Made by a program: the position numbers and the translations under genes
Assembly: GCA_041584475.1 (NCBI GenBank)
Contig: JBFHDX010000003.1
Location: 12,621 to 76,620 of the forward strand
DNA length: 64,000 nucleotides
DNA from: Alphaproteobacteria bacterium
Lineage (GTDB): Bacteria; Pseudomonadota; Alphaproteobacteria; UBA8366; JADFVY01
Direction: 5' to 3'
The notes under the pieces: generated by a model
What the model was told of the DNA's origin: nothing
Databases searched by the model: none
Seen by the model: the letters and a program-made list of their open reading frames with translations, nothing else
In this document: one piece after another, positions 6,581 to 39,864 of the stretch
How positions within the stretch are numbered: position 1 is the stretch's first letter
How the letters are laid out: each line of letters begins with the position of its first letter

Positions 6581-8647
<2,067 letters not shown>

Positions 8648-8715
8648 GCAGTCCTATCCCCGCTAGTGCCGGCCGCAGCCCGGCAATTCAGCAATTCGCC
8701 GCATACCAGTATCGC

Positions 8716-10563
8716 TCAACGGCGGTCACTCCTCCCGCCGCTGCCGTCGAATTCCTCGTCTTCCTCGCGCGCCCGGCTTTCGCCACGTTCCACATCCTTG
8801 CGAAACGCCAAGAACCGCGCTTCCGTCTCCTCGTCCGGATTGTCAGCCGTATAACGCGCAGTTGCCTTCAACTCTTCCCTTCGCCGCGCCTGAAAAATCA
8901 GCGAAAGCACCTCGTCGAGCCCGAACCGTGCCTCCGCCGCCGAGCTTTCCCGGCGGGCGAAGGGTGCATGGACTCTGACGTCATCCGCGCTCAGCACCGC
9001 CAGTACGGCGGCGTGGCCGTCCTGTGAGAGGTGGCGTTTCAATGTCTCCGCGTCAAGGTCCGGGCTGGATGCCAAGTGTTTTTGTAGTCCCTGCAGAACC
9101 TTGTCAAGATCGGGATCGAATTCGACGCGCGCCAGCGCATCGCTGAACTCATCCGCGAGTTCGGGATGCTGCAGCACCGTCGCGAGCACCACCTGCTGGC
9201 GCCGGCGCCGCATCGTCGATGCGTCCGCGAGCGCCCGCGGGCCGATCGGACGATGCCGTGTGGTCGCCTCGAAAGGCCGCGTACCGGCTTGGGGGGGGCG
9301 GCGGAACGCGCGCCACAGCCGGTCGCGGAAGGCCGCACGGTAGTGTGCCTGCACGGTACGGTCCGCGATTTGGGCAACGCGCCGTTCCAGGCGGCGCTGA
9401 AGGTCGGCCTTGCGTTCGGGTGTATCGAGCGGTCTCAGGGCGTACTCGATCTGCCAGACGAGTTCCGACATCGGCTCGGCCTGATCGAGAACGCGCCGAA
9501 GTGCGGCCGGTCCGCCGCTCGCCAGCAGATCGTCGGGATCGTTGCCCGGCGGCAGCATGGCAAAGCGCAACGACCGGCCGGGCTGCAGGAGCGGCAGCGC
9601 GCGTTCGGCCGCCCGTGCCGCCGCCCGGCCGCCGGCCTCGTCACCGTCGAAACAGAGGATCGGCTCCGCGGCGATCCGCCACAGTGCGGCGAGCTGATGC
9701 TCGGTCAGCGCCGTCCCCAGCGGCGCCACGGCCCCGTGAAAGCCGGCGCGATCCATGGCGATCACGTCCATGTAGCCTTCCGCGACGATGAGCTCCGCAC
9801 CGTCGCGGACGGCGCCGGCCGCCCGCTCCAGATTGTAGAGCGTGCGCCCCTTGTGAAAGATCGGCGTTTCCGGCGAGTTGAGATATTTCGGGCCCTCGCC
9901 CCCGAGAATGCGACCGCCGAATGCGATGGTGCGACCGCGGCGGTCGGTGATGGGGAACATCACGCGGCCGCGAAAGCGGTCATAGGACGAACGCCCGTCG
10001 TCGGGCCAGATCAGCAGCCCGGCCTCGATCAGCAGCGCCTCTTCGAAGCCCTGCCCGACGAGCGCTGTCTTGAGTGCGGCGCGGGCGTCGGGCGCCACGC
10101 CGAGACGGAACCTGCGGATCGCCGCATCGTCCAGTCCGCGGCCCTTCAGATAGGCCAGCGCGGCCGCGCCGTCGGGACTTTCCAGGCGGGCGGCGAACCA
10201 GGTTGCGGCGGCGTTCACGGCCTCCGCCAGGCCGGCGCGCTTCTGTTCGCGCGCCCGCTCTTCCGGCGTCTCGCGCGGCAACGGCAGGCCAGCCGTTCCG
10301 GCAAGCTGCTCCACGGCCTCCCGGAAGCCGAGCTTTTCCGCATTCATGACGAAGCCGATCACATCGCCATGCGCGCCGCAGCCGAAGCAGTGGTAGAACC
10401 CCTTGTCCTCGTTGACCGTGAAGGACGGCGTCTTCTCGTTGTGGAACGGGCAGAGCCCGAGATGCTCGCGCCCCCTGCGAACGAGCTTTACCCGCCGGCC
10501 GACGACATCGGCGAGCGCGACCCTGTCCCGGATGTCGTCGAGAAAGCGGGGGGGAAACGCCAT
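8716..10563 (-). CDS. dnaG: DNA primase DnaG
   Basis: 615 aa with ATG at 10563. Zinc ribbon is CPFHNEKTPSFTVNEDKGFYHCFGCGAHGD. TOPRIM segment is LIVAEGYMDVIA. It is in the classic position upstream of rpoD. Confidence 0.96.
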   Translation of the reverse strand: MAFPPRFLDDIRDRVALADVVGRRVKLVRRGREHLGLCPFHNEKTPSFTVNEDKGFYHCFGCGAHGDVIGFVMNAEKLGFREAVEQLAGTAGLPLPRETPEERAREQKRAGLAEAVNAAATWFAARLESPDGAAALAYLKGRGLDDAAIRRFRLGVAPDARAALKTALVGQGFEEALLIEAGLLIWPDDGRSSYDRFRGRVMFPITDRRGRTIAFGGRILGGEGPKYLNSPETPIFHKGRTLYNLERAAGAVRDGAELIVAEGYMDVIAMDRAGFHGAVAPLGTALTEHQLAALWRIAAEPILCFDGDEAGGRAAARAAERALPLLQPGRSLRFAMLPPGNDPDDLLASGGPAALRRVLDQAEPMSELVWQIEYALRPLDTPERKADLQRRLERRVAQIADRTVQAHYRAAFRDRLWRAFRRPPQAGTRPFEATTRHRPIGPRALADASTMRRRRQQVVLATVLQHPELADEFSDALARVEFDPDLDKVLQGLQKHLASSPDLDAETLKRHLSQDGHAAVLAVLSADDVRVHAPFARRESSAAEARFGLDEVLSLIFQARRREELKATARYTADNPDEETEARFLAFRKDVERGESRAREEDEEFDGSGGRSDRR

Positions 10564-29396: not shown

Positions 29397-29747
29397 CGTG
29401 GGGTGTTTCCTCTAACTCTCTCTACCCGATGCCCGGCCCCTTACTTTTGCTGCCAACCCGGCTTTCTTATTAGCGGGGCAAGGTTGCCAATTGCTTAAGT
29501 CTTAATACGTTTGGGACAGCTCCTCCGTTGCGGACACTGCTGCAAGCGTTTTCGGATCGGCTAGTGAACAACGGGTTTGACCGCGTTTGCATTCCATCGG
29601 ACCGCCGAATTCCGGACGCCGGATCGCGAGTCGGCAGCGAGCGCCGCCCTCGCGCCGCACAGGGGACTGTCAAACGGGGTAGCCGCCCACTTGGCAACGG
29701 CGCCGCCACCCCGTGACCCGCTTCGCATCCGCGCCTATATTGTCGGC

Positions 29748-31922
29748 ATGTCCGTCGCCACCATGACCCGCAAGCCGCCGGAACGGCCCCGTTCCGAAGG
29801 CGGCATCCCGTTCGACCTGGTGTCCGAGTATCAGCCGGCCGGCGATCAGCCCCAGGCAATCGGGGAACTGGTGGCGGGGGTCGGCGCCGGCGAGAGGGAC
29901 CAGGTGCTACTCGGCGTCACCGGCTCGGGCAAGACCTTCACGGTCGCCCGGATCATCCAGGAAACCCAGCGCCCGGCGTTGATCCTGGCGCCGAACAAGA
30001 CACTTGCGGCGCAGCTTTACGGCGAGATGCGCTCGTTCTTCCCGAACAACTCGGTCGAGTATTTCGTCTCCTACTACGACTACTACCAGCCCGAGGCCTA
30101 TCTGCCGCGGACCGATACCTATATCGAGAAGGATTCCTCGAGGAACGAGCAGATCGACCGCATGCGGCACGCGGCAACGCGCGCCCTGTTCGAGCGTGAC
30201 GACGTGATCATCGTCGCCTCGGTCTCGTGCATCTACGGCATCGGCTCGCCGGAGACCTATTCGGAGATGACGATCGAGCTCGCGGCCGGCGGGCGCGTCG
30301 AGCGCGACACGCTGCTCGCCGGCCTCGTCGAGCTTCAATACCGCCGCAACGACACGAACTTCGTGCGCGGCACGTTCCGGGTGCGCGGCGACGTGATCGA
30401 GATTTTCCCGGCGCATTACGAGGATCGCGCGTGGCGGATCTCGCTGTTCGGCGAGGACATCGAGACGATCGACGAGTTCGACCCGTTGACCGGCGCAAAG
30501 GCGACGTCGCTAGAGGCCGTACGCGTTTACGCCAACAGCCATTACGTCACTCCGCGACCGACGTTGCAGCAGGCGACGCGGACCATCAAGATCGAGCTGA
30601 AGGACCGGCTCGGCGAACTCAATGCCGCGAACCGGCTGCTCGAAGTGCAGCGGCTCGAGCAACGCACGACGTTCGACCTCGAAATGATCGAGGCGACGGG
30701 CTCGTGCCCCGGCATCGAGAACTATTCGCGTCACCTGACCGGCCGCAATCCCGGCGAACCGCCGCCGACCCTGTTCGAGTACCTGCCGGACAACATGATC
30801 CTGTTCGTCGACGAGAGCCACGTCACCGTGCCGCAGATCGGCGGCATGGCGCGCGGCGACTACGCGCGCAAGTCGGTGCTCGCCGAATACGGCTTCCGCT
30901 TGCCGTCCTGCGTCGACAACCGGCCGCTGACGTTCGACGAGTGGAACCACATGCGGCCACAGACCGTCTACGTATCGGCGACGCCGGGGCCATGGGAGCT
31001 GGAGCGGACCGGCGGCGTGTTCGTCGAGCAGGTGGTGCGGCCGACGGGGCTGGTCGACCCGGTCTGCGTCGTGCGGCCGACCGAGCACCAGGTCGACGAC
31101 CTGCTCGCCGAGTGCAGGGACTGCGCGGAGCGGGGCCAGCGGGTGCTGGTGACCACGCTGACCAAGCGCATGGCCGAGGATCTTACCGAATACATGGTCG
31201 AGGCGGGCCTCAAGGTGCGCTATCTCCACTCCGACGTCGATACGCTCGAGCGTATCGAGATCATCCGCGACCTGCGGCTCGGGGCATTCGACGTGCTCGT
31301 CGGCATCAACCTGTTGCGCGAGGGTCTCGACATCCCCGAATGCGCGCTGGTGGCGATCCTCGACGCCGACAAGGAGGGATACCTGCGCAGCCGCACCTCG
31401 CTGATCCAGACGATCGGACGCGCGGCGCGCAACATCGACGGCCGCGTCATCCTCTATGCCGACAGCATGACCGAGTCGCTCAAATACGCGATCGAGGAGA
31501 CCGAGCGGCGGCGCGAGAAGCAGCAGGCCTACAATGCCGAACGCGGCATTACCCCGGAGACGGTTCGCAAGCAGATCGCCGATATCCTCGACAGCGTGTA
31601 CGAGCGCGATCATGTCACCGTCGCGACGGGGGACGCGGCGGCGCCGCACCTGGTCGGGCTCGACCTCAAGAGCTATCTGTCGCAGCTCGAGGACCGCATG
31701 CGGGCGGCCGCCGCCGATCTCGAATTCGAGGAGGCGGCGCGGCTGCGCGACGAGATCAAGCGACTCGAGGCGTTCGACCTCGAGATGCCGGTCGACGTGT
31801 TGCCGCTGGATCCGGCGATCGCCGGAACGCTAGCCGGCGGCGGCAAGGCGCTGCAACCGGCGGGCGGCGGGCGGCGCAGATCGCCGAAGGGCAGGTCGAA
31901 GGGCAAGCACAGGCGGCGCTGA
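29748..31922 (+). CDS. uvrB: Excinuclease ABC subunit B
   Basis: The track ORF starts at 29577. I prefer the ATG at 29748 ([11 protein letters not shown]). Motifs are [17 protein letters not shown], Walker [17 protein letters not shown] and the C-terminal UVR motif [17 protein letters not shown]. Confidence 0.96.
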
Positions 31923-32008
31923 GCCGCGTCGTCGAGGGTTTGCGGCAAAACCTGGAATCGTAGTGACGAGACGTGCCGGCACGCCGGCATTGCGAGGGGG
32001 ACAGAGCG

Positions 32009-33805
32009 ATGTCGATCCTGGGGCTGGCGACCGTGCTGATGGTCGCGGCGGTGATTGCGGTACCGGTCGCGAAGCGGCTCGGGCTCGGCTCGGTGCTCGG
32101 CTACCTCGCGGCGGGTGCGGTGCTCGGTCCGGCCGGGCTCGGCATCGTGCGCGACGTCGACAATATCCTCCATTTCGCCGAGCTGGGCGTCGTCCTGCTG
32201 CTGTTCATCATCGGCCTCGAGCTGCAGCCGAGCCGCCTTTGGACCATGCGCCGCCCGGTGTTCGGGCTGGGCGGTGCGCAGGTCGCGGTCTCGGCGCTGC
32301 CGATCGCGCTGGCCGGCTGGCTTGCCGGACTGTCGCCGCAGGCGGCCCTGGTCGTCGGCCTGGCGCTGGCACTCTCGTCGACCGCGTTCGCGTTGCAGCT
32401 GCTTGCGGAGAAGAACCAGCTGACGACGAAACATGGCCGGGCCGCCTTCTCGATCCTGCTGTTCCAGGATATCGCGGCGATCCCGATCCTCGCCCTGACG
32501 CCGCTACTCGGGCCGCAGGACGGCGCGCCGCCCGGCGCCGGCGAGACGGCGCTGGCCGCCGCACAGGTGGTGGCGGTGGTCGTCGCGGTCGTGCTCGGCG
32601 GCCGCTATCTGCTGCGCCACGTCTTCAGGATCGTCGCCGCGAGCGGAATCCGCGAGGTGTTCACGGCGACCGCACTGCTGACCGTCGTCGGTACGGCGCT
32701 GCTGATGCAGCTGGTCGGACTGTCGATGGGACTCGGCGCCTTCCTCGCCGGCGTCCTGCTGGCGGACTCGGAATACCGGCACGAGCTCGAAGCGGATATC
32801 GAGCCGTTCAAGGGGCTGCTGCTCGGGCTGTTCTTCATCGCCGTCGGCATGTCGGTCGACCTCCGCCTGGTCGGCACGCAGCCGACGCTCATCGCCGGCC
32901 TCGTGGCCGGTCTGGTGGCGCTCAAGGGAATCGTCCTCTATGGGTTGGGCCGGCTCTACTGCGAGACCGACGCGTCGGCCCGTCAGCTCGCGCTGGCGAT
33001 CCCGCAGGGTGGCGAATTCGCCTTCGTCATCTTCGGCGTCGCCGTCGGCGCCGGCGTCATGGATTCCGGCATCGCCGACCTGCTGGTCCTCGTCGTGTCG
33101 CTGTCGATGGCGGTGACACCGCTGCTCATGGCTGCCCACGACATCGTCCTGCGCGGGCGCGGCAAGCCCGCCGCTGCCGACGGGTACGAACCGCCGGACC
33201 CGGAGGAGCACCCGGTGATCATCGCGGGGTTCGGCCGGTTCGGGCAGATCGTCGGACGCGTCCTGCGCGCCCGCAAGATCGGCTTCACCGCGCTTGAGGC
33301 GAGTTCCGACCAGGTCGATTTCGTCAAGAAGTTCGGCAACAAGGTCTATTACGGCGATGCGTCGCGCCTCGACCTGCTGCGCGCCGCGGGCGCCGACCGG
33401 GCAACCGCGTTCGTCCTGGCCATCGACGATGTCGATTCCTCGCTGCGAACCGCGTCGACGGTGGCCCGGCATTTCCCGAGACTGAAGATCTATGCGCGGG
33501 CGCGGAACCGTGCCCATGCCTACAAGCTGATGGAGCTCGGCGTCGAGGTGATCCGGCGCGAAACGCTGCTGTCGAGCCTCGACCTGGCGCGCGCGCTGCT
33601 CGAGGGTCTCGGTCTGCCCGAATACGACGCCGAGAAGACTGTGCAGACCTTCCGCCGGCACGACGAACAGCGCCTGCATGCGCATTTCGACATGCGCGAC
33701 GACGAGGATCGCATGGCGCAGCTGGCGCAGGAATGGGCGAAGGAGCTCGAACAGCTGTTCGAGCAGGACGCTGCCGACGAGGCGGCGCGCCGCGGCATAT
33801 CGTAG
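32009..33805 (+). CDS. Monovalent cation:proton antiporter-2 (CPA2) family K+ efflux protein, KefB/KefC-like, with C-terminal RCK/TrkA-N domain
   Basis: I prefer the ATG at 32009 (MSILGLATVLMVAAVIAVPVAKRLGLGSVLGYLAAG). It has a polytopic Na+/H+-exchanger-type body followed by VIIAGFGRFGQIVGRVL (NAD-fold RCK). Confidence 0.9.
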   Translation: MSILGLATVLMVAAVIAVPVAKRLGLGSVLGYLAAGAVLGPAGLGIVRDVDNILHFAELGVVLLLFIIGLELQPSRLWTMRRPVFGLGGAQVAVSALPIALAGWLAGLSPQAALVVGLALALSSTAFALQLLAEKNQLTTKHGRAAFSILLFQDIAAIPILALTPLLGPQDGAPPGAGETALAAAQVVAVVVAVVLGGRYLLRHVFRIVAASGIREVFTATALLTVVGTALLMQLVGLSMGLGAFLAGVLLADSEYRHELEADIEPFKGLLLGLFFIAVGMSVDLRLVGTQPTLIAGLVAGLVALKGIVLYGLGRLYCETDASARQLALAIPQGGEFAFVIFGVAVGAGVMDSGIADLLVLVVSLSMAVTPLLMAAHDIVLRGRGKPAAADGYEPPDPEEHPVIIAGFGRFGQIVGRVLRARKIGFTALEASSDQVDFVKKFGNKVYYGDASRLDLLRAAGADRATAFVLAIDDVDSSLRTASTVARHFPRLKIYARARNRAHAYKLMELGVEVIRRETLLSSLDLARALLEGLGLPEYDAEKTVQTFRRHDEQRLHAHFDMRDDEDRMAQLAQEWAKELEQLFEQDAADEAARRGIS

Positions 33806-33891
33806 GGTACGGGCCGGAATTCCTTCCCACCGCTGCGTTTCGGGTTATATTCGCTCGGTGGAGGTGGCGCGATTCCGGGTTGGAGCGGGCG

Positions 33892-34296
33892 ATGAGCCAG
33901 ACCGATCATGCTCTGTCGGTGGTGCAGCGGGCTTACCGCTGCCTCGAGGCGGGCGACATGTCCGGGCTCATGGCGTTGATGGACACCAACCTCGACTATA
34001 TCGAGCCAGGGCCGCCGGGCCGCATACCCTGGGCGGGCCATTTCAAGGGCCTCGAAGGGTTCGCCCAGTGGATGGCCTCGAACCAGGAGCACCTGGAGAA
34101 CAGCAGGATCGAGCCCGAGGATTACGTATCGGACGGGAATCGCGTGGTCATGTTCGCGCGCATGTCGGCGACCGTCCGCAAGACCGGGAAGCCCCTCGAG
34201 AGCCATCTCGCCATCGCTTTCACGATCACGAACGGACGGCTGCGAACGGTCCGCATCTACCAGGATACGGCTGCGCTGCTCGAGGCGATCGCCTGA
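33892..34296 (+). CDS. SnoaL-like / NTF2-fold (ketosteroid-isomerase-like) protein
   Basis: I prefer the ATG at 33892 (MSQTDHALSVVQRAYRCLEAGDMSGLMALMD...). Length is 134 aa. The pattern is typical of SnoaL_2/NTF2-like proteins (V..AY.....GD...L..L...D..W, ending F.I.NG.I). Confidence 0.7.
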   Translation: MSQTDHALSVVQRAYRCLEAGDMSGLMALMDTNLDYIEPGPPGRIPWAGHFKGLEGFAQWMASNQEHLENSRIEPEDYVSDGNRVVMFARMSATVRKTGKPLESHLAIAFTITNGRLRTVRIYQDTAALLEAIA

Positions 34297-34404
34297 CCCG
34301 CGACGCCGCGTCCGTCGACGGCCCTTGCCGAGACCGTTCGCGCTCACGGATAATGGGTGCGTCGCCTGTCGTCCCCCGCAATCGAACCGCGTGCCGCTGA
34401 TCCG

Positions 34405-35139
34405 ATGAATTCCGGTTTCCTGTCCCTCCTGCGCCTCGTCCTGGGCAGCGTAAGGGATCTGGGTCCGATCATCGTCGTCATCGGTTTCTTCCAGATCGTC
34501 GTCTTGCAGCAGCCGTTCCCCGAACTCGAGCGGGTCGCGATCGGCGTCGTGCTGGTCATGGTCGGACTCACGCTCTTCGTCGAGGGTCTGGAGATGGGCC
34601 TGTTCCCGATCGGCGAAGCCATGGCGCACGCCTTCGCACGCAAGGGCAGCCTCGCCTGGCTGCTCCTCTTCGCGTTCTGTCTCGGCTTCGGAACGACCGC
34701 GGCCGAGCCGGCGCTGATCGCGGTGGCGGCGGAGGCCGCGCGCGCCATGGCCGAGGCCGGTGTCGTCGCGCCCGACGCGCCGTCCCGGGCGTCCTATGCG
34801 CTCGGCCTGCGGTTCACGGTCGCCATTTCGGTCGGCGCGTCGCTCGTGCTCGGCGTCTACCGGATCCTCAAGGGGTGGCCGGTCCACGTCCTTATCATCG
34901 GGGGCTACATCATCGTCGTCATCCTGACCTTCTTCGCGCCGCCGGAGATCGTCGGCGTCGCATACGATTCCGGAGGCGTGACGACGTCGACCGTGACCGT
35001 ACCGCTGGTCACGGCACTCGGTTGCGGGCTGGCGGCGACGATCCGCGGCCGCAACCCCCTCACCGACGGCTTCGGACTGATCGCCTTCGCAAGCATGTTC
35101 CCGATGATCTTCGTCATGCTCTACGGGATGGTCGTGTGA
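34405..35139 (+). CDS. DUF1538 family polytopic membrane protein, paralogue A
   Basis: The track start at 34357 is a GTG. The ATG at 34405 ([30 protein letters not shown]) aligns with the N-terminus of paralogue B. Conserved block is [50 protein letters not shown]. Confidence 0.8.
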
Positions 35140-35960
35140 TGGAACTGCTGCTGCATTTCTTGAATACGGCTCGGGCAACGCTGTTCGATGTGGCGCCGAT
35201 CGCCGCCGTTCTCGTCGGCTTCCAGGCCCTGGTCATCCGCCGCCGGCCACCGGGCCTGCGGCGCATCGTCATCGGGTTCGTCTACGTCCTGGTCGGCCTC
35301 ACGCTGTTTCTGGTCGGCCTCGAGGAAGCGTTGTTCCCGATCGGTCGGATCATGGCCAGGCAGTTGACCGACCCGGTCTTCCTGGGTATCGCGGGATCCG
35401 CCGTGGTCTGGACCGATTACCTCTGGGTCTATGGCTTTGCCGCGGCCATCGGTTTCTCGACCACCATCGCCGAGCCATCGCTCCTGGCCGTGGCGGTCAA
35501 GGCGAACCAGGTCTCGGGCGGCACGATCTCGGTCTGGGGGCTGCGCATCACGGTGGCAATCGGGGTCGGTATCGGCGTCACGCTGGGCGTCTATCGCATC
35601 GTCACCGGCACGCCGCTCTACTGGTATATTATCGTCGGCTACGCGGTGCTGATCGTGCAGACCTGGCGGGTCGTCAGGGTGGCGGACGAGATCGTGCCCC
35701 TGGCGTACGATTCCGGTGGCGTGACGACCTCGACTGTCACTGTTCCGCTCGTCACGGCGCTCGGGCTCGGCCTTGCTGCAACGATCCCGGGACGCAGCCC
35801 GGTTATCGATGGATTCGGGCTGATCGCCTTTGCCAGCCTGTTTCCGATGATCACCGTCCTGGGTTACGCTGAGCTCGCCGCTGCCCGGGCCCGACGGCGC
35901 GACAGGGCGAGCGAGGTCGAGGTGGAAAAGGAACGGGGCACCGAAAGGAGCACCATATGA
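35139..35960 (+). CDS. DUF1538 family polytopic membrane protein, paralogue B
   Basis: The ATG at 35139 overlaps the stop of paralogue A (TGATG, 35137-35141). Length is 273 aa. The N-terminus is [29 protein letters not shown]. Conserved block is [50 protein letters not shown]. Confidence 0.82.
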   Translation: MELLLHFLNTARATLFDVAPIAAVLVGFQALVIRRRPPGLRRIVIGFVYVLVGLTLFLVGLEEALFPIGRIMARQLTDPVFLGIAGSAVVWTDYLWVYGFAAAIGFSTTIAEPSLLAVAVKANQVSGGTISVWGLRITVAIGVGIGVTLGVYRIVTGTPLYWYIIVGYAVLIVQTWRVVRVADEIVPLAYDSGGVTTSTVTVPLVTALGLGLAATIPGRSPVIDGFGLIAFASLFPMITVLGYAELAAARARRRDRASEVEVEKERGTERSTI

Positions 35961-36307
35961 GGTTCAAATTGATCATGGCGCTGGTCGATGACGACTACAC
36001 GGAAGAAATCGTCGCGGCCGCGCGCGAGGCCGGGGCTACCGGCAGCACGATCATCACCAGCGCTCGCGGCGAAGGGTTGAAGCCGGAAAAGACGTTCCTC
36101 GGGCTCGACCTCGCGGCGCAGCGCGATCTCCTGTTGTTCCTCGTCGCGGAACCGTTGAGCCGCGACATTCTCGAGACCATTGCCGAGGCGGGCAAGTTCG
36201 ACGAACGCCCCGGCTCCGGAATTGCCTTCCAGGTCGCCATCGAAGACGCGGTGGGCCTGTCGTCCCAGATGGAGACCCTGACCCAGGAAATCGAAGAGCA
36301 GATATGA
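35957..36307 (+). CDS. PII-like (GlnB-fold) signal-transduction protein, divergent
   Basis: 116 aa. The start forms an ATGA overlap with the upstream stop (35957-35960), with an AAAGGAG RBS at 35944-35950. The layout FKLIMALV / helix / GSTIITSARGEG / loop / LLLFLV / helix / GSGIAFQVAIEDAVG matches the PII double beta-alpha-beta fold. The canonical T-loop Tyr context and the TGxxGDGKIF signature are missing. Confidence 0.75.
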   Translation: MRFKLIMALVDDDYTEEIVAAAREAGATGSTIITSARGEGLKPEKTFLGLDLAAQRDLLLFLVAEPLSRDILETIAEAGKFDERPGSGIAFQVAIEDAVGLSSQMETLTQEIEEQI

Positions 36308-36729
36308 AGCAGGAACCGTATATCAGCGTTGCCGAAGTGATGACTCGCAACGTTCAGACGGTCGACAGCATGGCCACGGTGCGCGAGGCAATGGAGAAAA
36401 TGGCGACCTCGCATGTCAGTTCGCTGGTCGTCGATCGGCGCGACGAGCGGGACGAGTACGGCATCGTCGTCGTCACCGATATCGCCAGCAAGGTCGTCGC
36501 ACGGAATCTCTCGTTCGACCGCGTGCAGGTGTACGAGATCATGCGCAAGCCGATCATCACGATCGATCCCCAGATGGATCTGCGCTACGCCATCCGTCTG
36601 ATGGTTCGGCTCAACGCCAGCCGCGCGCTGGTCCAGGGTCCCGACCGCGAGCGGCAGGGCGTGGTGACGTTGCGCGACATGGTGCTGCGGTATGCCAAGG
36701 CACGCGATTCCGCGGAGCCCGGGAGTTGA
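36304..36729 (+). CDS. Tandem CBS-domain protein
   Basis: 141 aa. The start forms an ATGA overlap at 36304-36307. There are two CBS repeats: VAEVMTRNVQTVDSMATVREAMEKMATSHVSSLVVDRRD...GIVVVTDI and VYEIMRKPIITIDPQMDLRYAIRLMVRLNASRALVQ...GVVTLRDM. Confidence 0.85.
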   Translation: MKQEPYISVAEVMTRNVQTVDSMATVREAMEKMATSHVSSLVVDRRDERDEYGIVVVTDIASKVVARNLSFDRVQVYEIMRKPIITIDPQMDLRYAIRLMVRLNASRALVQGPDRERQGVVTLRDMVLRYAKARDSAEPGS

Positions 36730-37526
36730 CCGAGGGCGAACGGCCAGCGGGCGGAGTCTCGCCGACGATCCCGCGTGCCGCCCTGGTCACCGGTGCCGCG
36801 TACCGGATTGGCCGCGCCATTGCGGTCGAGCTGGCGTCGCGGGGATTCGCAGTCGCCGTTCACTACAACCGGTCGAAGGACGGGGCGAGCGAACTGGTCG
36901 CCGAGATCCGCGACGCGGGCGGACGGGCCGTCGCCGTCTCGGCCGACCTCACCGACGAGGCCGAGACGTCGAAGCTGATCGATCGCGCCACGGCTGCCGT
37001 CGGCCCCATCGGCTGCCTTGTGAACAATGCGTCACGGTTCGAAATGGATGTCTGCGACACGGTTACCCGCAAGAGCTGGGACGCCCACATGGAGACGAAC
37101 CTGCGGGCACCGTTCATCCTTTCGCAGTCCATGGCGGCGGCCCTCCCGGCCGACGCCGAGGGCGTCATCGTCAACCTGCTCGACCAGCGCGTGTGGAACC
37201 TCACCCCCTACTTCATCAGTTACACGGTCTCGAAATCCGCGCTCTGGACGCTTACGCAGACACTGGCGCTGGCGCTGGCACCGCGTATCCGGGTCAACGC
37301 CATCGGTCCCGGCCCGACGCTGAAGAGCGAGCGTCAGACCGAGGACCAGTTTCGCATGCAGTGGAACGCCGTACCGCTGCGTCGCGGTGCGACGCCCGAG
37401 GAGATCGCCGCGGGCGTGAGCTTCGTCCTGTCGGCGCCTTCGATGACCGGCCAGATGATCGCGCTCGATGGCGGCGAGCACATGGGCTGGGCCCAGCCGG
37501 AGCACGGGCAGACGCCCGTCGAATGA
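36726..37526 (+). CDS. Short-chain dehydrogenase/reductase (SDR) family oxidoreductase
   Basis: 266 aa. The TTG start at 36726 overlaps the CBS stop (TTGA), and there is no in-frame ATG or GTG before the Rossmann motif ALVTGAAYRIGRAIA. Further motifs are NNAS and the catalytic YTVSKSAL. Confidence 0.85.
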   Translation: MTEGERPAGGVSPTIPRAALVTGAAYRIGRAIAVELASRGFAVAVHYNRSKDGASELVAEIRDAGGRAVAVSADLTDEAETSKLIDRATAAVGPIGCLVNNASRFEMDVCDTVTRKSWDAHMETNLRAPFILSQSMAAALPADAEGVIVNLLDQRVWNLTPYFISYTVSKSALWTLTQTLALALAPRIRVNAIGPGPTLKSERQTEDQFRMQWNAVPLRRGATPEEIAAGVSFVLSAPSMTGQMIALDGGEHMGWAQPEHGQTPVE

Positions 37527-37821
37527 GTCGCTAAGAACCGGCGGACGACGGGGTCTTCGCCGTCGCATCCCGCAGCATCGGTTTCCGGTGCGGAAACACG
37601 GTGTTGGAGGGGCGCCGCCGATCGCGATTTTTTGCACAGCGGGTTTTCGTACTTCGCCGATCGCGTCCGGTGGCGCAGGCGTTGCCTATCGGTTATACAA
37701 CCTATACAGAAGGATACGGATTATGCCGTTAAAAAACAGGGCGTTAGATGATGTTGCCCAATTCTTGGGCAGCGCTCGCAAAGCTGTGAGATTCCCGATA
37801 CGAAGGGCCGGTCTTCGCGAT

Positions 37822-37856
37822 TTATCGACAAAGTTATCCACAGATTCCGTGGATTT
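37822..37856. promoter_or_regulatory. Cluster of DnaA-box-like 9-mers in an AT-rich island upstream of uvrC
   Basis: TTATCGACA at 37822-37830 has 1 mismatch. TTATCCACA at 37834-37842 is a perfect match to the E. coli-type consensus TTATCCACA. An inverted AAATCCACG (reverse complement of 37848-37856) has 3 mismatches. The three boxes are spaced 3 and 5 nt apart. Confidence 0.4.
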
Positions 37857-37947
37857 GTTTCTAAATTATTGAGAATTCGAAGATTCGTTCCGCGCAGCCG
37901 GTTCCGTGCCATTGACGGCGACGGCGGCGTTGCCGAGATTAGGGTCC

Positions 37948-39864
37948 ATGATCGACGCATCGTCCAGCGCGCAGTCGCCCGCTACCGGATCGCGCGGCGC
38001 TGCGGTCAGCCTCTCGGCCGGCACCCGGCTGATTCGCGAAAAGGTCCGTACGATGTCGGGTGCGCCCGGCGTCTACCGGATGATCGGCGGCCGCGGGAAA
38101 GTCCTGTATGTCGGCAAGGCGCGTAATCTGAAGAAGCGCGTCGGGACCTATGCCAATCCGGCGAGGCTGTCGGTACGGCTGCAGCGGATGGTGGCGGAGA
38201 CGAGGGAGCTCGAGGTCGTCACGACCCATACCGAGGTCGAGGCCCTGTTGCTCGAAGCCAACCTCATCAAGACGCTGAAGCCGCACTACAACATCCTGCT
38301 CCGCGACGACAAGTCGTTCGCCGACATACTCATCGCGACCGATCACGGCTATCCGCAGATCATCAAGCATCGCGGCGCCCGCAAGCGCCCTGGGCGTTAT
38401 TACGGGCCGTTCGCCTCCGCCGGTGCCGTGAACCGCACGATCACCGCCCTGCAGCGCGCGTTCCTGATCCGGAATTGTTCGGACGCGGTGTTCGCCAGCC
38501 GAACGAGACCCTGCCTGCAGTACCAGATCAAACGCTGCAGCGCGCCCTGTGTGGGGCGCATCGATCAGACCGACTACGACGATCTCGTGCGACAGGCTCA
38601 TGCCTTCCTGAGCGGGCGCACCCACGACGTCCAGCAAGATCTCGCGCGACAGATGCAGGTCGCGAGCGACGCCATGGAGTTCGAGCGCGCCGCCGCCATT
38701 CGCGACCGCATCAAGGCGTTGACGATGATCCAGTCGCACCAGGACATCAACCCCCTGGGAATCGGAAATGCCGACGTGATCGCCCTGGCACAGGAAGGCG
38801 GCCAGTCGTGTATCCAGGTGTTCTTCTTCCGCGACGGTCGCAACCACGGCAACCGCGCCTATTTCCCGAGCCACGACAGCAACGCCGGCCCGGCGGAGAT
38901 CATGGCGGCGTTCGTCGGCCAGTTCTACGAGGGTCGATCGCCGCCGAGACTGATCCTCATGAGCCACCAGCCCGACGAGGCGGCATTGCTCGGCGAGGCG
39001 CTTTCGGTGATGGCCGGCCGCAAGGTCGAGATCCGCGTGCCGCGGCGCGGGCGATTCCGGAAGCCGACCGAGCATGCGCTCATGAACGCCCGATCGGCAC
39101 TCGCAAGACGCATGTCGGAAAGCGCCTCGCAGCGGCGGCTGCTTGAAGGCGTGGCGGCGGCCCTCGACCTGGAATCGGCACCCGAGCGGATCGAGGTCTA
39201 CGACAACAGCCACATCCAGGGTACCGGTGCGGTGGGGGCGATGATCGTCGCCGGTCGCGAAGGTTTCAACAAGGCGGCGTATCGCAAGTTCAACATCCGG
39301 ATCGAAGGTGGTGACGAGGCGTCGGCGGGCGACGACTACGCGATGATGCGCGAGGTGCTGACGCGACGCTTCAGCCGGGCGATGCGGGAGGATCCCGATC
39401 GCGAAGACGGAACCTGGCCCGATCTCGTCGTGATCGACGGCGGGCCGGGGCAATTGTCGGTGGCGACAGGCGTGCTCGAGGAGCTCGGGATCGAGGATGT
39501 TGCGCTGGTCGCCATCGCCAAGGGGCCCGACCGGAACGCCGGGCGCGAGCGGTTCCATCGACCGGGACGCGCGCCGTTCATGCTCGAGCCGCGCGATCCC
39601 GTCCTGTATTTCCTGCAGCGCCTGCGAGACGAGGCGCACCGGTTCGCCATCGGCGCCCACCGAACGCGCCGGGCAAAGGGCATCGCAGCGTCGCCGCTCG
39701 ACGAGATCCCGGGCGTCGGAGCGCGTCGCAAGCGCGCCCTGCTCCAGCACTTCGGATCGGCGCGTGCCGTCGCGCAGGCGGGTCTGGCGGATCTCGAGGC
39801 GGTCGCGGGTGTCAGCCGCTCGGTCGCGCGGAAAATCTATGGCCATTTCCATGACGACCGTTAG
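37948..39864 (+). CDS. uvrC: Excinuclease ABC subunit C
   Basis: I prefer the ATG at 37948 (MIDASSS...). The GIY-YIG motif is [26 protein letters not shown]. The C-terminal (HhH)2 is [37 protein letters not shown]. Confidence 0.96.

Follow-up and report, generated by a model that had tools for sequence, protein, structure and literature searches.

A UmpAB-type (DUF1538) membrane pair encoded with PII-like and CBS proteins: a candidate sensor-gated cation/proton antiporter cassette

What do the tightly packed genes at positions 34405–37526 of the 64,000-nt stretch of alphaproteobacterial DNA analysed here (the window) encode, and which of them belong together? Five consecutive, overlapping open reading frames (ORFs) lie there on the + strand. 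A sequence-only reading had interpreted them as one unit made of two DUF1538 membrane proteins, a PII-like protein, a CBS protein and a short-chain dehydrogenase/reductase (SDR), forming a nucleotide-gated channel or transporter of unknown substrate. The reading that we favour, with a probability of roughly 60%, is that the first four genes (34405–36729) form a self-contained cassette in which a UmpAB-type antiporter would be gated by a dedicated pair of PII-like and CBS sensor proteins. The five ORFs, with coordinates taken from the + strand and lengths in amino acids (aa), are as follows.

34405–35139, + strand: gene A, umpA-like, DUF1538 membrane subunit A, 244 aa (Pfam, NCBIfam)
35139–35960, + strand: gene B, umpB-like, 273 aa, DUF1538 membrane subunit B, C-terminal tail hydrophilic and basic (Pfam, NCBIfam)
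35957–36307, + strand: divergent member of the PII family, 116 aa, putative regulator of the antiporter (Pfam P-II, AlphaFold2 (AF2) model, Foldseek, linkage)
36304–36729, + strand: stand-alone CBS-pair (Bateman module) protein, 141 aa, proposed second sensor (Pfam CBS, linkage)
36726–37526, + strand: SDR oxidoreductase, 266 aa, TTG start (NCBIfam NF006597, Pfam adh_short)

The ORFs and their four overlapping junctions were found where the sequence-only reading had placed them. Genes A and B share one base (TGATG, 35137–35141), gene B and the PII-like gene overlap at ATGA (35957–35960), the PII-like and CBS genes at ATGA (36304–36307), and the CBS and SDR genes at TTGA (36726–36729). Public gene calls for the same contig use identical starts, that of the SDR (TTG) being the least certain coordinate, and a GGAG Shine-Dalgarno-like sequence lies upstream of the PII-like gene. 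The family names given to the five proteins were likewise borne out by Pfam, with all assignments above gathering thresholds. The two membrane proteins are paralogues with a shared block, as had been noticed: they are 48% identical (BLASTP E 1e-61) and have a long C-terminal block in common, and the DNA at 34960–35110 and 35703–35850 is identical at 118 of 148 aligned positions (~80%).

The membrane pair can be named more closely. The gene A protein matches Pfam PF07556 (DUF1538) with 232 bits (E 6e-69, profile positions 1–211 of 211) and the gene B protein with 209 bits (E 5e-62, positions 1–209 of 211), the cut-off being 22.6 bits. In NCBIfam, the top model for A is NF041627 (UmpA, 360 bits versus 177 for UmpB) and the top model for B is NF041628 (UmpB, 308 bits versus 192 for UmpA), both models being named Na,Li,K/H(+) antiporter subunits. 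The earlier statement that DUF1538 has no experimentally defined function is therefore outdated, and the substrate is no longer a complete blank. The founding DUF1538 pair, UmpAB of Halomonas zhaodongensis, was first characterised in 2017 (Meng et al., Sci Rep 2017, PMC5484666) as a heterodimeric Na+(Li+,K+)/H+ antiporter, UmpB being co-immunoprecipitated with UmpA. Everted vesicles displayed pH-dependent Na+, Li+ and K+/H+ antiport, for which K0.5 values were reported, and UmpAB by itself gave E. coli KNabc tolerance to salt and alkali (PMC5484666).

The window pair resembles Halomonas UmpAB in several respects. In both, two adjacent, overlapping, paralogous DUF1538 genes of 40–50% mutual identity encode a shorter A and then a longer B, and in the window each product is nearer its own subunit model. 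Going by the description in the paper, the subunit-specific loop insertions, the hydrophilic tail of B and the kinds and numbers of conserved charged residues are also the same. UmpA was described with a longer loop, and UmpB with an extra loop and a hydrophilic C-terminus (PMC5484666); in a pairwise alignment, A carries an 11-residue insertion at about residues 113–131 relative to B, and B carries a 12-residue insertion after the second helix and a 26-residue charged tail. Moreover, E101, D188, D221, R136, R153 and R216 are invariant between A and B, matching the one Glu, two Asp and three Arg conserved in both Ump subunits (PMC5484666), which supports the UmpAB identity. By these sequence criteria A and B appear to be UmpA and UmpB orthologues, with their biochemical function extrapolated from a single study. 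By analogy, they most likely form a heteromeric transporter, as had been proposed, since co-immunoprecipitation shows UmpAB to be a heterodimer and A and B also occur naturally fused, in proteins of about 500 aa.

Discontinuous helices with conserved acidic residues are typical of ion-coupled transporters. In the all-helical AF2 model of A (predicted local distance difference test score (pLDDT) 82, predicted template modelling score 0.67) two helices are broken at invariant motifs, E101-P102 (AE101P) and T196-V197 (TT..T196V..P), an arrangement that would fit a transporter of this kind. Neither the sequence nor a Foldseek search matched A to any solved transporter. An internal duplication of DUF1538, in which the N- and C-terminal halves would each contain a TT....P broken helix, was rejected (hhalign probability 0.2%). 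Independent hints of a role of DUF1538 in pH and salt adaptation come from its selection among the Pfam features that predict optimum growth pH and from the proposal that UmpAB homologues serve salinity adaptation in cable bacteria.

Which genes accompany the pair was surveyed in genomes, with one genome per species and a four-sequence alignment as query. Of the 588 DUF1538 loci obtained, the best 80, which are 63–73% identical to A, were used; their ORFs were searched with the window proteins and the neighbouring ORFs were clustered. The taxa covered are Alpha- and Gammaproteobacteria, Desulfobacterota, Nitrospirota, Dehalococcoidia and Latescibacterota, with genera including Vibrio, Photobacterium, Colwellia, Moritella, Sedimenticola, Methylophaga and Beggiatoa relatives. 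DUF1538 was present at 80/80 loci, the PII-like gene at 74/80 and the CBS gene at 70/80, invariably in the order A-B-PII-CBS on one strand, so the PII-like/CBS association claimed for the window recurs across phyla. No further gene family was common to more than 12 of the 80 loci, and the remainder is lineage synteny, with neighbour-cluster representatives that we take, by eye, to be nadC, ampD, ampE, an OmpR-type regulator and a YfcE-like phosphoesterase. With no other neighbours shared, the cassette seems to move as a unit between genomic contexts. The tightest junction is that between the two putative sensors: the PII-like stop overlaps the CBS start at 67 of 71 loci (61 as ATGA), compared with overlaps at 44 of 78 for A/B and 31 of 78 for B/PII-like. 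As a separate observation, the cassette proteins of three loci, L066 (CAVYIJ010000005.1, from a bin labelled Halobacteria archaeon, a metagenome-assembled genome), L014 and L046, are 66–71% identical across bacterial phyla, which suggests frequent horizontal transfer or, in the archaeal case, mis-binning.

The linkage extends to distant members of the family. In a metagenome survey seeded with distant DUF1538 proteins, 59 loci had enough downstream DNA to be usable, and at 56 of these a PII-like gene lies directly 3' of the DUF1538 gene or genes, joined at 35–37 of them by a CBS gene; in one clade the order is A-B-PII and CBS is missing. Fused double-DUF1538 proteins of 567–609 aa, followed by one or two PII-like genes, were also found among the metagenome loci. 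Plasmid-borne DUF1538 genes whose products are 27–31% identical to A (Methylocystis, Peptoclostridium, Paraclostridium) have P-II genes next downstream. The order on the Methylocystis plasmid is DUF1538-DUF1538-"P-II family nitrogen regulator", and on the Peptoclostridium and Paraclostridium plasmids a fused DUF1538 protein is followed by a 222-aa protein, in which Pfam detects two P-II stretches in Peptoclostridium and one in Paraclostridium, a broader profile matching both halves of each.

Covalent fusions provide a second line of evidence. Among 150 family representatives at 50% identity, four (P0242, P0255, P0256 and P0286) carry a PII-like domain on the C-terminus of the DUF1538 protein, joined by a linker of 40–55 aa. 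In P0243, a double-DUF1538 protein of 724 aa, a cytidylate-kinase-like/AAA_18 nucleotide-binding domain stands at the C-terminus where the others have the PII-like domain. P0274 was excluded as a fifth fusion, being apparently a frameshift artefact, and none of the 150 representatives has CBS fused to DUF1538. On the strength of the linkage in distant clades and the four fusion proteins, the link between the PII-like protein and DUF1538 is family-wide and probably physical, and the CBS partner, judged from the same comparisons, is specific to a large clade within the family. The transporter family itself is already known, widespread and named; in open-access papers and preprints, with subscription-only literature outside the search, we found no description of the DUF1538-PII-CBS link, that is, of a near-obligatory PII-like partner and a CBS co-partner. 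A further feature of the loci with fused DUF1538 is that the PII-like partner is doubled, either as a tandem 222-aa protein (L087, 4617–5285; L088, 4614–5282) or as two consecutive genes (L158, L162, L164 and L167), which hints at hetero-oligomeric PII-like assemblies.

The gene 3 protein matches Pfam PF00543 (P-II) with 36.7 bits, the cut-off being 25, and its AF2 monomer model (pLDDT 86) has the beta-alpha-beta-beta-alpha-beta order plus an extra C-terminal helix. In Foldseek, GlnK, GlnB, CPII and SbtB match it about equally (E ~1e-6), with template modelling scores of 0.6–0.8 to GlnK/GlnB. The family profile compared with the Protein Data Bank (PDB) gave archaeal GlnB/GlnK on top (E 4e-6), with PstA (4rww) at E 0.36 and SbtB undetected, so by sequence the protein is nearer GlnB/GlnK than SbtB. 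The T-loop Tyr and the GDGKIF signature are missing, as the sequence-only reading had pointed out: Leu52 aligns at Tyr51 and Leu50 at Ser49, the T-loop modification sites, and the B-loop is PGSGIAF where canonical PII has GDGKIF. The canonical residues R38, K90, R101 and R103 are replaced by L41, I89, G100 and S102, Q39 by K42, K58 by R56, and G87-D88-G89-K90 by G86-S87-G88-I89. Retained in the family are the glycines of the cleft (G26/G29, G38/G40, G86/G88) and, where K58 would stand, a basic residue (R56); its T-loop is about 5 residues shorter than the canonical one, with a nearly invariant KTF[FL]GL motif. Because four canonical basic residues of the nucleotide site are lost, the gene 3 product, judged by its residues, belongs under PII-like and not under GlnB/GlnK, and the canonical ATP/2-oxoglutarate chemistry appears unlikely. 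The "P-II family nitrogen regulator" annotated beside DUF1538 pairs is probably no nitrogen regulator.

These data bear on whether the DUF1538 pair might move another substrate, for instance ammonium, an organic ion, bicarbonate or a different inorganic-carbon species. In that case the PII-like protein would signal the carbon, nitrogen or energy status of the cell, its role being modelled on SbtA-SbtB, AmtB-GlnK or DabAB-CPII, and the antiport seen in E. coli would be a side activity. We consider this unlikely. It is true that all PII-transporter pairs in a 2023 review (PMC10710835) move nitrogen or carbon species and none alkali cations, and that antiport is known from one heterologous study, by complementation and vesicle assays, but in that study Na+, Li+ and K+ versus H+ antiport was measured directly (PMC5484666). 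Many carriers are sulfur-oxidising autotrophs or methylotrophs (Thiomicrorhabdus, Sedimenticola, Beggiatoa relatives, Gallionellaceae, Methylophaga), whereas the cassette is equally conserved in the marine heterotrophs Vibrio, Photobacterium, Colwellia and Teredinibacter, and carboxysome, RuBisCO, amt and gln genes do not recur among the neighbours at the 80 loci. The predicted fold, which matches no solved transporter, gives no clue to the substrate, while the PII-like protein is without the residues that canonical PII uses for ATP and 2-oxoglutarate. An alkali-cation/proton antiporter thus remains the function that we favour for the pair.

The gene 4 protein is a plain Bateman module, matched by Pfam CBS in two stretches (E 3e-18), with the putative ribose-binding Asp motif G-h-h-[ST]-x-x-D in both repeats (GIVVVTD and GVVTLRD). 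The motifs are conserved over 72 orthologues, as DEYGIVxx[ST]DIA and G[IV]V[ST]xxDMV, and the nearest solved sequence is the CBS part of CBS-CP12 (5nmu, E 1e-18). Among CBS-regulated transporters, MgtE, OpuA, CorC/CNNM and ClC, the CBS pair is built into the transporter or its ATPase as a domain. The window protein shares with these a Bateman module, with the ribose-binding Asp motif in both repeats, tied to an ion transporter; it differs in being a separate 141-aa protein that is translationally coupled to the PII-like protein and not to the membrane subunits. Stand-alone small proteins of both domain types are found, likewise in a setting of monovalent-cation homeostasis, in the Firmicutes, where DarA/PstA (PII-like) and DarB/CbpB (a CBS pair) are c-di-AMP receptors in K+ and osmolyte homeostasis. 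The window proteins fall outside both groups: the CBS protein matches the CbpB model faintly (21.7 bits versus a cut-off of 125), and the PII-like protein lies far nearer GlnB/GlnK than PstA (E 4e-6 versus 0.36) and has a long T-loop where that of PstA is shortened. To our knowledge, Vibrio and other Proteobacteria, which are common carriers of the cassette, make no c-di-AMP.

A possible contact between the two sensors is suggested by the tail of the PII-like protein. Of the distinct PII-like sequences compared, 99 have a CBS gene downstream and 16 have none; an acidic C-terminal tail whose last residue is hydrophobic (e.g. VEDEL) was found in 85 of the 99 and in 0 of the 16, a correlation confounded by shared ancestry, since the CBS-less loci come from few clades. 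The count fits a contact between this tail and the CBS protein, and overstates the independent evidence for it. Charge complementarity between the tail of UmpB (median net +2) and that of the PII-like protein (median −2) was discarded as a weak trend that the positive-inside rule explains.

How, then, would the cassette work? Homology, the subunit to which each gene is assigned, gene linkage and domain fusions are what the analysis shows; direct binding, the direction of regulation and the ligands are inferred, as follows. The UmpAB-like pair would most likely be a heterodimeric Na+/Li+/K+:H+ antiporter serving salt and alkaline-pH homeostasis, and the two small cytoplasmic proteins would be its dedicated regulators, unnecessary for transport itself. 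The PII-like protein may dock where the fusion proteins place the PII-like domain, at the cytoplasmic face of the antiporter and close to the UmpB C-terminus. Its conserved T-loop (KTF[FL]GL) could then switch transport on and off, by analogy with the GlnK plug in AmtB and the SbtB lock on SbtA, in which the T-loop inserts into the transporter and locks it (PMC10710835). The CBS protein, presumably kept at a constant ratio to the PII-like protein by the overlapping ATGA, would be a second input, most likely for adenine nucleotide or ionic strength, and may bind the acidic C-terminal tail of the PII-like protein. The resemblance to AmtB-GlnK and SbtA-SbtB lies in a small PII-fold protein encoded directly beside a secondary transporter, family-wide and in many phyla, and in a long, conserved T-loop that might reach into the transporter. 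The differences are that the DUF1538 transporter is unrelated, with no sequence or Foldseek match to solved structures, and is reported as a heterodimer and not a trimer; that the window PII-like protein is without Tyr51, R38, K90, R101 and R103, has the T-loop shortened by about 5 residues and an extra C-terminal helix; and that the window cassette adds a CBS protein.

Several points weigh against this reading. A (360 bits) and B (308 bits) lie below the NCBIfam equivalog cut-offs (490 bits for UmpA, 500 bits for UmpB), so that equal function is an extrapolation across an estimated 60% identity, and the pair is no near-identical copy of Halomonas UmpAB. The two models appear to be tuned narrowly to Halomonas, since ten of ten gammaproteobacterial orthologues tested, with the same cassette, are likewise under the UmpA cut-off (356–401 bits); no representative or gammaproteobacterial protein reached it, the closest being that of Gynuella (401 bits). 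A protein search seeded with the Gynuella protein gave matches including Teredinibacter and Neiella and none from Halomonas. The nearest proxy for the Halomonas umpAB locus is the Vibrio loci, which have the full cassette: Vibrio homologues are 59–65% identical to Halomonas UmpA (Table S1 of PMC5484666), a distance about equal to that between the window protein and Vibrio. The antiport function, moreover, comes from one heterologous study by one laboratory. The Halomonas fragment that was cloned stopped behind umpB and so brought no PII-like or CBS gene into E. coli, where it was active (PMC5484666), so that the sensors are dispensable for activity, i.e. they would be modulators and not transport subunits; that publication makes no mention of downstream PII-like or CBS genes, whereas the window and most relatives have both. 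The loss of R38, K90, R101 and R103 means that the ligand cannot be inferred from the PII-like sequence, and the ancestry shared by the CBS-less loci blunts the tail correlation. According to the 2023 review, PII regulation seems restricted to transporters that function as trimers (PMC10710835), and a PII trimer is mismatched to an antiporter reported as a heterodimer. Finally, the support for putative binding of the sensors to UmpAB is drawn from sequences.

The activity of UmpAB without both proteins would also suit a scheme in which the PII-like and CBS proteins are co-expressed with the antiporter and have their targets elsewhere, in an enzyme or a transcription factor for example, with the transporter as a co-regulated neighbour or a membrane sink. 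There are precedents for each part of it: canonical PII has many soluble targets and AmtB sequesters GlnK on the membrane (PMC10710835), and stand-alone CBS proteins such as DarB regulate soluble enzymes. It is nonetheless quite improbable in our view, because four different clusters at 50% identity contain proteins with the PII-like domain covalently fused to the DUF1538 C-terminus, the cassette has no additional conserved companion family that could be the target, and the linkage holds down to about 27% identity within DUF1538. Regulation of the antiporter itself by the sensor pair therefore stays the preferred reading.

Does the cassette end at the CBS gene, or does the SDR belong to it, as the sequence-only reading had it? 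The SDR scores 383 bits with NCBIfam NF006597 (PRK09134; cut-off 281), the runner-up being pteridine reductase, and matches Pfam adh_short. In the 80-locus survey it lies near the cassette in Rhodospirillales relatives only and is absent beside the cassette outside that order. One related Rhodospirillales genome (L004) has the order uvrB, cassette, PA14, Na_Ca_ex, SDR, folB, uvrC, pgsA, in which PA14 and Na_Ca_ex intervene between cassette and SDR. From this gene order the SDR looks like part of the local synteny on the uvrC side, with its overlap with the CBS gene secondary. It is probably co-transcribed with the cassette in the window, yet it is a lineage-specific neighbour outside the conserved module and, in our model, would be a passenger of local synteny. 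In L004 the SDR is directly followed by folB (the two-gene stretch is at 8444–9627), and in the window 380 nt of non-coding DNA (37527–37905) separate the SDR from uvrC. A folB remnant after the SDR was rejected, as tblastn found no folB homologue anywhere in the 64-kb window.

Upstream, at 31973–34296, lie genes for a KefC-like CPA2 protein (Pfam Na_H_Exchanger and TrkA_N), which scores 735 bits on the KefC model, just under the cut-off of 752, and for a SnoaL_2 protein. Their family identities thus hold as first read, but their use as a hint of function does not, since they are not conserved neighbours. They stand between uvrB and the cassette in the window species only; in the relative (L004/L005) uvrB adjoins the cassette directly, and the two genes therefore look like a lineage-specific insertion. 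Kef-type genes occur near the cassette at 5 of the 80 loci, on either strand, so that any clustering of cation/proton antiporter genes is a weak tendency at best. Two CBS-less loci may be mentioned here (L024 and L050, Thiomicrorhabdus/Thiosulfatimonas), in which A-B-PII, with a longer PII-like protein of 122–124 aa, is directly followed by a Kef-type CPA2 gene with its own regulatory domain. The longest uvrB ORF of the window (29577–31922, 781 aa) opens with TTG and has about 60 more residues at its N-terminus than the UvrB called in L004 (720 aa), and the true start is probably internal to it.

These neighbours also bear on the case of a larger unit, in which the SDR, the KefC-like and the SnoaL proteins would work with the cassette in one module for ion, pH or electrophile homeostasis, with a substrate as yet unknown. 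In its favour, the CBS stop and the SDR start overlap, the first terminator-like site on the + strand comes at 37836, and there are the five other loci with a Kef-type CPA2 gene. The comparative context nevertheless largely refutes it, and we give it very little credence: the SDR is of the PRK09134/pteridine-reductase-like group and in the relative sits two genes off the cassette, followed by FolB and next to uvrC and pgsA; it is not beside the cassette outside Rhodospirillales; the related genome has neither the KefC-like nor the SnoaL gene upstream, its cassette coming straight after uvrB; and Kef-type genes elsewhere lie on either strand. The four-gene cassette, A-B-PII-CBS, is accordingly kept as the unit.

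Two candidate signals flank the genes.

34325–34354, + strand: weak sigma-70-like promoter match (TTGCCG, 18-nt spacer, GATAAT), from a consensus scan alone, 9/12 hexamer positions
37836–37854, + strand: first terminator-like hairpin with a T-run after gene A, from a pattern scan alone

The promoter-like match lies within the 108 nt that separate gene A from the SnoaL gene, and a match at 9 of 12 positions is no evidence of function. The pattern scan found no + strand terminator-like site in 34405–37835; this and the promoter-like site are compatible with a single transcript, yet are no evidence for one. An upstream riboswitch of the Na+, Li+ or c-di-AMP classes was rejected, as no Rfam element, these classes included, matched at 33600–38000 up to E = 1, and none was found upstream of the cassette in 11 other loci. 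At a Nitrospirales locus (L038) a c-di-GMP-I-GGC riboswitch was matched at 8630–8706 with 72 bits, which exceeds the gathering score; it is on the strand of the CBS gene, about 360 nt 3' of it, and the following gene is probably under its control.

PII proteins rank with the most widespread signal integrators in biology, and their few known transporter partners are all nitrogen or carbon carriers. If the favoured reading is true, the cassette would question the idea that PII regulates trimeric transporters only. More tentatively, and with somewhat less than even confidence, DUF1538/UmpAB, a family whose fold is neither solved nor recognisable, may come as standard with a dedicated PII-like subunit, joined by a CBS co-sensor in a large clade. 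AmtB-GlnK and SbtA-SbtB would then be joined by one more natural pairing of PII with a transporter, and no earlier one would involve an alkali-cation/proton antiporter or a transporter reported as a heterodimer. As its ATP/2-oxoglutarate site is lost, the PII-like protein may sense a new signal (a different nucleotide, pH or a cation), perhaps relayed via a PII-CBS complex. For annotation, DUF1538 pairs are better named UmpAB-like. The presence of the cassette in easily grown marine Vibrio, Photobacterium, Colwellia and Teredinibacter makes the hypothesis directly testable. If it holds, it would supply a testable regulatory mechanism for the poorly understood UmpAB family and would extend PII signalling to pH and salt homeostasis via a Na+/K+-proton antiporter.

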